NCBI RefSeq assembly: GCF_030013595.1 | Contig: NZ_CP122768.1 | DNA from: Escherichia coli | Lineage (GTDB): Bacteria > Pseudomonadota > Gammaproteobacteria > Enterobacterales > Enterobacteriaceae | DNA: 64,000 nt | Strand: one strand, 5' to 3' | Shown here: piece after piece, positions 22,103-28,499 of the stretch | How the letters are laid out: the number at the start of each line of letters is the position of its first letter | How positions within the stretch are numbered: the stretch's first letter is position 1 | The notes under the pieces: generated by a model | The model's input: only the letters and a program-made list of their open reading frames with translations | Told to the model about the DNA's origin: nothing | Database searches by the model: none | Program-made: the position numbers and the translations under genes

Positions 22103-22477
22103 ATGACCATGTACGCAACGCTTGAAGAAGCCATTGACGCTGCACGCGAAGAATTTCTTGCAGACAACCCCGGCATCGACGCCGAAGATGCGAATGTGCA
22201 ACAGTTCAATGCCCAAAAATACGTTTTGCAGGACGGCGACATCATGTGGCAAGTTGAGTTTTTTGCCGACGAAGGGGAAGAAGGTGAATGTTTACCTATG
22301 CTTAGCGGTGAAGCCGCGCAAAGTGTCTTTGACGGCGACTATGATGAGATAGAGATCCGCCAGGAGTGGCAAGAAGAGAATACATTACATGAATGGGACG
22401 AGGGGGAATTTCAGCTTGAGCCACCGCTGGATACCGAGGAAGGACGCGCAGCAGCTGATGAGTGGGATGAACGTTAA
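22103..22477 (+). CDS. msyB: acidic protein MsyB
   Basis: 124-aa highly acidic protein MTMYATLEEAIDAAREEFLADNPGIDAEDANVQQF... Confidence 0.9.
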   Translation: MTMYATLEEAIDAAREEFLADNPGIDAEDANVQQFNAQKYVLQDGDIMWQVEFFADEGEEGECLPMLSGEAAQSVFDGDYDEIEIRQEWQEENTLHEWDEGEFQLEPPLDTEEGRAAADEWDER

Positions 22478-22705
22478 TCACTCATACGGGCCATGATGAA
22501 TGTCGATCGGCAGCAGTAAAGTATCAAAAACCAGGGAGAATGGCAGATCAAGGATCGTGACATAACGCCAGGCGGAGTCACGCACATCCCATTGCACACC
22601 GGGATAATATTGGTTGCCATGCCCCTGCCCCGGTATAGTGCGACTAATAATGCTGCCACAGCCACTCAGCAAGGTCACCATGATGCTCACCACAATTAAA
22701 CGCAT
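22478..22705 (-). CDS. yceK: lipoprotein YceK
   Basis: 75-aa ORF MRLIVVSIMVTLLSGC (lipobox)... Confidence 0.88.
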   Translation of the reverse strand: MRLIVVSIMVTLLSGCGSIISRTIPGQGHGNQYYPGVQWDVRDSAWRYVTILDLPFSLVFDTLLLPIDIHHGPYE

Positions 22706-22731
22706 TTGATACCTCTTCCGTAAAAAAATAC

Positions 22732-22744
22732 CGGCATAACGCCG
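22732..22744. repeat. IS4 target-site duplication, left copy (CGGCATAACGCCG)
   Basis: Identical 13-mer directly abuts both IS4 ends (22732-22744 and 24171-24183). Confidence 0.85.
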
Positions 22745-24170
22745 TAATGCCGATCAGTTAAGGATCAGTTGACCGATCCAGTGGCTGTGTAAGAATCCGG
22801 AAACGCTCACTTGTTTCCGGATTTTTTTATGCACATTGGACAGGCTCTTGATCTGGTATCCCGTTACGATTCTCTGCGTAACCCACTGACTTCTCTGGGG
22901 GATTACCTCGATCCCGAACTCATCTCTCGTTGCCTTGCCGAATCAGGTACTGTAACGCTACGCAAGCGCCGTCTTCCCCTCGAAATGATGGTCTGGTGTA
23001 TTGTTGGCATGGCGCTTGAGCGTAAAGAACCTCTTCACCAGATTGTGAATCGCCTGGACATCATGCTGCCGGGCAATCGCCCCTTCGTTGCTCCCAGTGC
23101 CGTTATTCAGGCCCGCCAGCGCCTGGGAAGTGAGGCTGTCCGCCGCGTGTTCACGAAAACAGCGCAGCTCTGGCATAACGCCACGCCGCATCCGCACTGG
23201 TGCGGCCTGACCCTGCTGGCCATCGATGGTGTGTTCTGGCGCACACCGGATACACCAGAGAACGATGCAGCCTTCCCCCGCCAGACACATGCCGGGAACC
23301 CGGCGCTCTACCCGCAGGTCAAAATGGTCTGCCAGATGGAACTGACCAGCCATCTGCTGACGGCTGCAGCCTTCGGCACGATGAAGAACAGCGAAAATGA
23401 GCTTGCTGAGCAACTTATAGAACAAACCGGCGATAACACTCTGACGTTAATGGATAAAGGTTATTACTCACTGGGACTGTTAAATGCCTGGAGCCTGGCG
23501 GGAGAACACCGCCACTGGATGATACCTCTCAGAAAGGGAGCGCAATATGAAGAGATCAGAAAACTGGGTAAAGGCGATCATCTGGTGAAGCTGAAAACCA
23601 GCCCGCAGGCACGAAAAAAGTGGCCGGGACTGGGAAATGAAGTGACAGCCCGCCTGCTGACCGTGACGCGCAAAGGAAAAGTCTGCCATCTGCTGACGTC
23701 GATGACGGACGCCATGCGCTTCCCCGGAGGAGAAATGGCGGATCTGTACAGTCATCGCTGGGAAATCGAACTGGGATACAGGGAGATAAAACAGACGATG
23801 CAACTGAGCAGGCTGACGCTGAGAAGTAAAAAACCGGAGCTTGTGGAGCAAGAGCTGTGGGGTGTCTTACTGGCTTATAATCTGGTGAGATATCAGATGA
23901 TTAAAATGGCGGAACATCTGAAAGGTTACTGGCCGAATCAACTGAGTTTCTCAGAATCATGCGGAATGGTGATGAGAATGCTGATGACATTGCAGGGCGC
24001 TTCACCGGGACGTATACCGGAGCTGATGCGCGATCTTGCAAGTATGGGACAACTTGTGAAATTACCGACAAGAAGGGAAAGGGCCTTCCCGAGAGTGGTA
24101 AAGGAGAGGCCCTGGAAATACCCCACAGCCCCGAAAAAGAGCCAGTAAGTTGCTTAACTGACTGGCATTA
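22745..24170 (+). mobile_element. insertion sequence IS4, complete copy (1426 bp)
   Basis: Left end TAATGCCGATCAGTTAAGG and reverse complement of right end TAATGCCAGTCAGTTAAGC form imperfect 18-19 bp terminal inverted repeats; length 1426 bp; encodes a DDE transposase; flanked by a 13-bp direct repeat. Confidence 0.9.
22829..24148 (+). CDS. insG: IS4 transposase
   Basis: ORF 22811..24148; [66 protein letters not shown]... recognised as the IS4-family transposase. Confidence 0.9.
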
Positions 24171-24183
24171 CGGCATAACGCCG
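24171..24183. repeat. IS4 target-site duplication, right copy (CGGCATAACGCCG)
   Basis: See left copy. Confidence 0.85.
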
Positions 24184-24316
24184 GTATTTTTATTGGCTCG
24201 TTGTTTTTGCCAGATGTGGCGTGAACGCCTTATCCGACCTACAAAATCTTGCAAAATCAACACATTGCAGGAGCGATGTAGGCCTGATAAGCGTAGTGCA
24301 TCAGGCAACTACGTTT

Positions 24317-28499
<4,183 letters not shown>

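Follow-up and report, generated by a model that had tools for sequence, protein, structure and literature searches.

The insertion between opgH and yceK in the window (the whole 64,000-nucleotide stretch of Escherichia coli DNA that was analysed) is best read, at a probability of roughly 0.85, as a standard IS4 copy in its preferred kind of target, an independent hit on a hotspot that is probably near-neutral for its host. The original prediction had concentrated on consequences for transcription and overlooked the main point, which is that IS4 target preference and a recurrent hotspot explain why the element lies here. IS4 would have transposed into an A-tract followed by about 20 bp of GC-rich palindrome and a T-tract, which is the DNA it prefers, and its transposase would have made a cut staggered by 13 bp and symmetric about the hairpin dyad, duplicating the apex. 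The target would be a conserved terminator, 125 nt past opgH and separated by 16 nt from the yceK start codon, and this terminator probably also ends the convergent mdtG-msyB transcript. Since its fit to the IS4 preference is good, the site would serve as a species-wide hotspot, hit about ten times and in both orientations. The insertion would have destroyed the original terminator as a unit, but with the end hairpins of IS4 and a hairpin re-formed at one junction, opgGH and msyB transcription probably still ends no more than a few tens of nucleotides from the original site; yceK would stay insulated and the insertion would probably be close to neutral. These effects on transcription are predictions. 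The genes run in the order lpxL-mdtG-msyB, yceK, opgH-opgG, and those nearest the insertion are as follows.

22103..22477, + strand: msyB, convergent with yceK and abutting it stop to stop
22478..22705, − strand: yceK, encoding a 75-aa lipoprotein, intact and identical to K-12 YceK
24195..24316: REP pair (BIME) between the opgH stop codon and the hairpin, untouched by the insertion
24317..26860, − strand: opgH (mdoH); the opgG-opgH operon runs toward the terminator

The element itself is an ordinary copy of the known IS4, a routine polymorphism with no new feature. The identification had been made from the letters alone, as had the reading that the transposase is antisense to opgH and yceK transcription, and both were borne out: the element is 1426 bp long and matches the transposase profile of the family, and its gene lies on the + strand, with opgH and yceK on the − strand.

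22745..24170, + strand: IS4, 1426 bp, with 7 differences from K-12 IS4 (assigned from its ends, alignment and family profile)
22745..22762, + strand: left terminal inverted repeat of IS4
22769..22796, + strand: promoter-like site TTGACC-16-AAGAAT, a consensus match only, likely the transposase promoter
22794..22828, + strand: IS4-internal left hairpin, with an 11-bp core (−22.7 kcal/mol) and then T7, directly 5′ of the transposase ATG
22829..24148, + strand: transposase gene, with 439 codons in the window copy (canonical form: 442)
24131..24166, − strand: IS4 right-end hairpin (24166-24141), with the tail UCUUUUUCGG
24153..24170, − strand: right terminal inverted repeat of IS4

The ends are 18-bp imperfect terminal inverted repeats, TAATGCCGATCAGTTAAG and TAATGCCAGTCAGTTAAG, starting TAATGCC, and 1419/1426 bases are identical to the IS4 annotated in K-12 MG1655. 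A single long + strand ORF encodes a product that scored 304.5 bits against the NCBIfam equivalog NF033592 (IS4-family transposase; cut-off 115). Length, terminal repeats, near-identity to K-12 IS4, transposase family and duplication length thus all agree with IS4, the 13-bp duplication falling within the 10–13 bp range given for the family (De Palmenaer 2008). Compared with the K-12 element (insG, the founding member of the IS4 family), which has the same 1426 bp and the same 18-bp ends, the window copy lacks the last three transposase codons, has a weaker right-end hairpin and occupies a different chromosomal location. The missing codons are due to a private C-to-A change at 24147, which turns the TCA of codon 440 (Ser440) into TAA and shortens the transposase from 442 to 439 residues; the change was present neither in the 17 other IS4 copies at the yceK site nor in K-12 IS4. 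Both ends of the window copy are intact.

The positions 22732-24183 correspond exactly to repeat, IS4, repeat, and the proposal that IS4 with a 13-bp duplicate splits a hairpin is confirmed.

22722..22744: yceK-proximal half of the split hairpin, with the A7 tract (22722-22728), the left arm and the loop, and a further 4 nt from the right arm
22732..22744: target duplication to the left of IS4, 13 bp (CGGCATAACGCCG), corresponding to the hairpin apex
24171..24183: the same 13 bp (CGGCATAACGCCG) repeated to the right of IS4
24171..24194: opgH-proximal half, which has 4 nt of the left arm, the loop, the right arm in full and T5

With IS4 and one of the two repeats taken out, the empty site reads AAAAAAATACCGGCATAACGCCGGTATTTTTATT. 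This sequence was recovered from 5353/5426 complete E. coli genomes (≥80% coverage of a 242-nt query), and K-12 MG1655 carries the empty site base for base, so that the comparison with reference genomes that had been suggested as a check came out with the predicted hairpin in place. Two particulars needed amendment. The hairpin had been placed just after the opgH stop codon but starts 125 nt downstream of it, with the REP pair between; and the duplicated 13-mer, described as the loop and one stem arm, is in fact the apex CGGC-ATAAC-GCCG, that is, the loop and the inner 4 bp of both arms, which implies a staggered cut symmetric about the dyad. On the − strand, the sequence of the yceK-proximal half is CGGCGTTATGCCGGTATTTTTTT, and the yceK ATG comes 16 nt after it. 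A search of the region against Rfam returned REP-derived families in the BIME only (ES036 at 24243-24285, 45.7 bits, above the gathering score, and a weak naRNA4 match at 24195-24239) and none at the hairpin or in IS4. The REP sequences of the BIME have an AT-rich spacer between them. One of the genomes compared, BEC1-S17-ESBL-09 (H118), has an IS1397-family element somewhere in its 25-kb region; IS1397 is known for targeting REP/BIME elements.

The rebuilt hairpin, AAAAAAATACCGGC-ATAAC-GCCGGTATTTTT (also AAAAAAATACCGGC-ATAAC-GCCGGTATTTTTATT), is flanked by A and T tracts and has the anatomy of an intrinsic terminator: a 12-bp stem with seven GC-rich core pairs, a 5-nt loop and a U-tract directly after. 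The hairpin is followed by U7 in the direction of opgH and yceK and by U5AUU in the opposite one (UUUUUAUU), and the folding energies of the two strands are similarly −18.2 and −17.9 kcal/mol, respectively; the hairpin looks like a bidirectional intrinsic terminator. A terminator scan of the K-12 intergenic region left the intact hairpin unflagged, an artefact of the scan rule by which stem extension consumes the T-run, and folding was used instead. As for the opposite direction, the msyB transcript has to pass through yceK in antisense before it would reach this hairpin, there followed by TTTTTATT, at which it would be expected to terminate; the msyB and yceK stop codons abut without a spacer (22477/22478) and leave no space for two separate terminators. 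In a 2025 survey, yceK-msyB is counted among overlapping convergent transcript pairs, and the literature on yceK and opgGH yielded nothing else on their transcription. Terminator activity of the hairpin is a prediction from sequence and folding.

What the insertion does to transcription is the point on which the original prediction differs most from the reading favoured here. It held that the split terminator lets opgGH transcription read through IS4 into yceK, with the yceK promoter moved by 1.4 kb, so that expression is materially rewired. Part of the sequence is consistent with this. The opgH-side half of the hairpin leaves, on the − strand, a small residual hairpin with no U-tract after it, and a transcript passing this point would go into IS4 at the right end, antisense to the transposase, as had been predicted; any signal upstream of the last ~30 nt before yceK now lies 1.4 kb off; and the right-end hairpin of IS4, which in canonical copies has an unbroken 11-bp stem (−18.7 kcal/mol), carries one mismatch in the window copy (−12.3 kcal/mol), namely the private C-to-A at 24147. 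A transcript arriving from the opgH side would nonetheless face three obstacles in succession. The first is that same right-end hairpin with its UCUUUUU tail, which appears terminator-like for transcripts from this side; the canonical version, likewise followed by UCUUUUU, was flagged by the terminator scan in strain 32-4, and it faces inward from a position a few nucleotides inside the right end. The second is 1.4 kb of untranslated antisense RNA, and long untranslated antisense RNA is a typical substrate of Rho. The third lies beside yceK, where base pairing between ATCGGCAT, the terminus of IS4, and the retained ATGCCGGT re-forms an 8-bp hairpin, followed by A and U7. Given the right-end hairpin and the re-formed junction hairpin with its U7, read-through to yceK would not be the likeliest outcome, and substantial read-through as far as yceK seems unlikely. 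The mismatch in the right-end hairpin makes some opgGH read-through into IS4 plausible in the window copy, and somewhat raises the plausibility of read-through to yceK relative to canonical copies.

Nor did the intergenic region yield a promoter-like site that the insertion could displace: a promoter scan found no sigma-70-like promoter in the 172-nt K-12 yceK-opgH intergenic region, and the distance from the T-run to the yceK ATG is only 16 nt, ribosome-binding site included. That the insertion recurs in both orientations without decay of yceK (intact in 18/18 occupied genomes) also speaks against a material change in its expression, and we regard such rewiring as unlikely. Whether yceK is driven by a promoter that escaped recognition, by a start within the hairpin or by read-through, that source would now be separated from the gene by IS4. 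On the msyB side, the strong IS4 left hairpin at 22794-22823, with its T7 tail, is predicted to be terminator-like for arriving transcripts. The −10 hexamer of the promoter-like site in IS4 overlaps the start of this hairpin, and transcripts from the IS4 promoter would therefore miss its left arm and escape termination there. The promoter scan found no outward-facing promoter at the IS4 left end.

A second alternative grants the insertion but takes the palindrome for something other than a terminator—a protein-binding site, or a leader or attenuator of yceK—so that IS4 would be disrupting a different function. To its credit, the hairpin precedes yceK closely in every species examined. We compared the regions upstream of yceK in Salmonella enterica, S. 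bongori, E. albertii, Citrobacter braakii, Kluyvera, Atlantibacter, Buttiauxella and Entomohabitans, and in all of these relatives a GC-rich hairpin was found with a T-run ending 16–35 nt 5′ of the yceK start codon, even in Entomohabitans, where the gene upstream of yceK encodes a pyrophosphatase rather than being opgH. Nor were entries for yceK, opgH or mdoH found among the 3′-end and transcription-start data in the supplements of Adams et al. 2021 or of the SMRT-Cappable-seq paper. The pattern of change within the hairpin points the other way. In an alignment of nine hairpins (nine enterobacterial species, a small sample), 94.4% of cells formed standard pairs, compared with at most 54% when the partner strand was slid by 1–3 columns as a control; compensatory double changes were seen at three stem pairs, and the loop varied freely. 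Conserved pairing with a variable loop is what an RNA terminator hairpin would be expected to show, and conservation of stem pairing and U-tract, with compensatory changes, is typical of such a terminator and not of a sequence-specific protein site. A function other than termination is thus improbable, although terminator and attenuator roles are compatible and not mutually exclusive. In 9/9 species yceK lies 16–35 nt 3′ of a terminator-like hairpin, with no recognisable promoter between the two. It is possible that yceK is expressed only via regulated read-through of the hairpin.

The preference of IS4 for DNA of this kind is general. Twenty distinct IS4 sites were compiled: 16 from Kosakonia oryziphila, one from Photorhabdus khanii (both found by scanning species-representative genomes for the left end of IS4) and three from E. 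coli (yceK, aroA-ycaL and the K-12 resident). At 16/20 sites an A-run of three or more lay at −23 to −16 from the junction, against a background of 9.7% (p = 2e-13), and four sites lacked such a run. Adenine was strongly enriched at −20 to −16 and cytosine at −14 to −9, with guanine at −4 in 14/20 sites and at −1 in 17/20. A 4-bp palindromic apex was found at seven of the 20 sites, as compared with a background of 1.3% (p = 4e-9). Many of the Kosakonia flanks resemble the left half of a terminator, for example AAAAAAACGGCAGCC-ATT-GGCTG. At the aroA-ycaL terminator, AAAAAAAACGCCGGCA-ATG-TGCCGGCGTTTTTTTT, IS4 likewise lies at the apex and has duplicated 13 bp, its orientation in IAI39 (L037) being the reverse of that in SMS-3-5 (L038). 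Dozens of other records show the same partial-match pattern as these aroA-ycaL carriers and are probably occupied there too.

The K-12 resident IS4 and a copy in mdtH of strain SW070917 lie in non-terminator DNA, where the A-tract rule is still obeyed. The mdtH copy (L048, 1370-2716) is a second IS4 within the same 25-kb region of that strain; it interrupts the gene, and its duplication is a 14-bp palindrome, CCACGCTGCTGTGG, with an A6 run ahead of it. It follows that IS4 also enters coding DNA that fits its target rule. The determinant is probably the spacing of A and T tracts with a GC-rich core, of which terminators would be the commonest natural fit. Mayaux and colleagues reportedly proposed an AAA-N20-TTT target rule in 1984 and found IS4 in the pheST attenuator; the target in the window fits that rule. 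A preference of IS4 for particular target arms has already been documented (De Palmenaer et al.), and the pattern at the 20 sites agrees with it.

Two side observations arose from this compilation. In the draft genome of Kosakonia oryziphila REICA_142 (L019-L034), at least 16 contigs end in the IS4 left end, with 30 nt identical to the E. coli element, which suggests a recent IS4 expansion in another genus. A 265-bp contig labelled Methylobacterium mesophilicum NBRC 15688 (L036) has an IS4-end flank identical to that of the K-12 resident (L039), and is most likely E. coli K-12 contamination of the Methylobacterium assembly.

The site between opgH and yceK has been hit repeatedly. A junction query against 5426 E. 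coli genomes found IS4 there in the orientation of the window in 13 complete genomes, and an inverted-junction query found it inverted in four more; RefSeq annotates the same insertion in these 17 other genomes. Judging by the place counts of the junction query, the 5426 genomes hold about 5000 IS4 copies. In 17/17 the insertion is at the identical nucleotide, and the duplication is the identical 13 bp in 16 and 12 bp in one. Between occupied genomes, flank haplotypes differ at up to 150/3947 positions and IS4 haplotypes at up to 17/1426. Flanks, IS4 haplotypes, orientation and repeat length taken together give about 10–11 separate events, a count drawn from 4 kb of flanking sequence and from the haplotypes of IS4, both of which can be blurred by recombination or by gene conversion between IS copies. 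The occupied loci L010 and L015 differ in orientation although their flanks are near-identical and their IS4 sequences identical, and four others (L001, L003, L004 and L005) share identical flanks. No occupied genome closely matches the window, the nearest differing at ≥36 flank positions, and the closest relatives of the window (99.9% over 25 kb), HCP5S3_I2 for example, have an empty site; its insertion is therefore a separate and fairly recent event. Since none of the genomes in the collection is identical to the window, a Shigella origin was considered, but the 99.9% match to E. coli genomes makes it unnecessary. By this haplotype count, the predicted opgH-yceK terminator is a recurrent IS4 hotspot across E. 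coli, with about ten independent hits.

Recurrence on this scale might also be put down to positive selection for altered expression of yceK or opgGH, in place of target preference, and the occupation of one site in about ten lineages is in its favour. The frequencies, however, are low: 18 of about 5427 genomes are occupied (~0.3%), the largest cluster comprises four genomes, and nothing points to a sweep. The insertion is found in both orientations, the same geometry recurs at aroA-ycaL and at the 16 Kosakonia sites, and target preference alone suffices to account for the pattern, which makes selection a very improbable cause. Low occupancy, the lack of any large clone and the integrity of yceK favour near-neutrality instead. 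A single ancient insertion spread by descent or recombination, with no hotspot at all, would account for the flanks that some occupied genomes (L001, L003, L004 and L005) have in common, but is scarcely credible in the face of two orientations, duplications of 12 and 13 bp, IS4 copies and flanks that diverge to the extent given above, the L010/L015 pair and the empty site in the nearest relatives of the window.

Target preference acting on a recurrent hotspot, then, is the reading that we carry forward, and it can be set beside other elements that choose comparable sites. Insertion sequences that target REP/BIME elements (IS1397, ISKpn1, IS621, ISPpu9/10 and ISRm22) choose extragenic palindromes and so avoid genes (PMC1525189). 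An extragenic palindrome as target is the trait that these elements and the IS4 copy have in common; here, however, IS4 passed over a REP pair 5 to 125 nt away and took the terminator hairpin. The signature of IS4 is an A-tract, GC palindrome and T-tract, whereas REP-targeting elements follow the REP consensus and mostly have transposases of other families. Class C (IIC) group II introns are mobile elements too, and Rho-independent terminators are their homing sites (PMC3522654). These introns are RNA-guided, insert downstream of an intact terminator and leave its function in place; IS4, unlike them, belongs to the DDE transposons, and its cut at the apex leaves the hairpin in two parts.

The element, its family and its behaviour are already known, and the significance of the finding lies mainly in how such insertions are to be read. 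As opgH-yceK and aroA-ycaL are recurrent IS4 sites, shared occupancy is no evidence of common descent in strain typing, and annotators should not take the insertion for a regulatory innovation. Occupied and empty near-isogenic strains constitute a natural experiment on terminators split by an IS. The one mildly new idea is that the inward-facing end hairpins of IS4 may functionally replace the terminator that IS4 splits. In its fullest form, IS4 would be a dedicated seeker of terminator apices that offsets its own damage, with an inward hairpin at each end and termini that re-pair with the half-site; we hold this to be a tentative proposal and rather doubtful. Were it true, both flanking units would still be terminated and the transposase would be shielded from outside transcription, and terminators would be safe havens, accounting for the recurrent and apparently neutral insertions of IS4.
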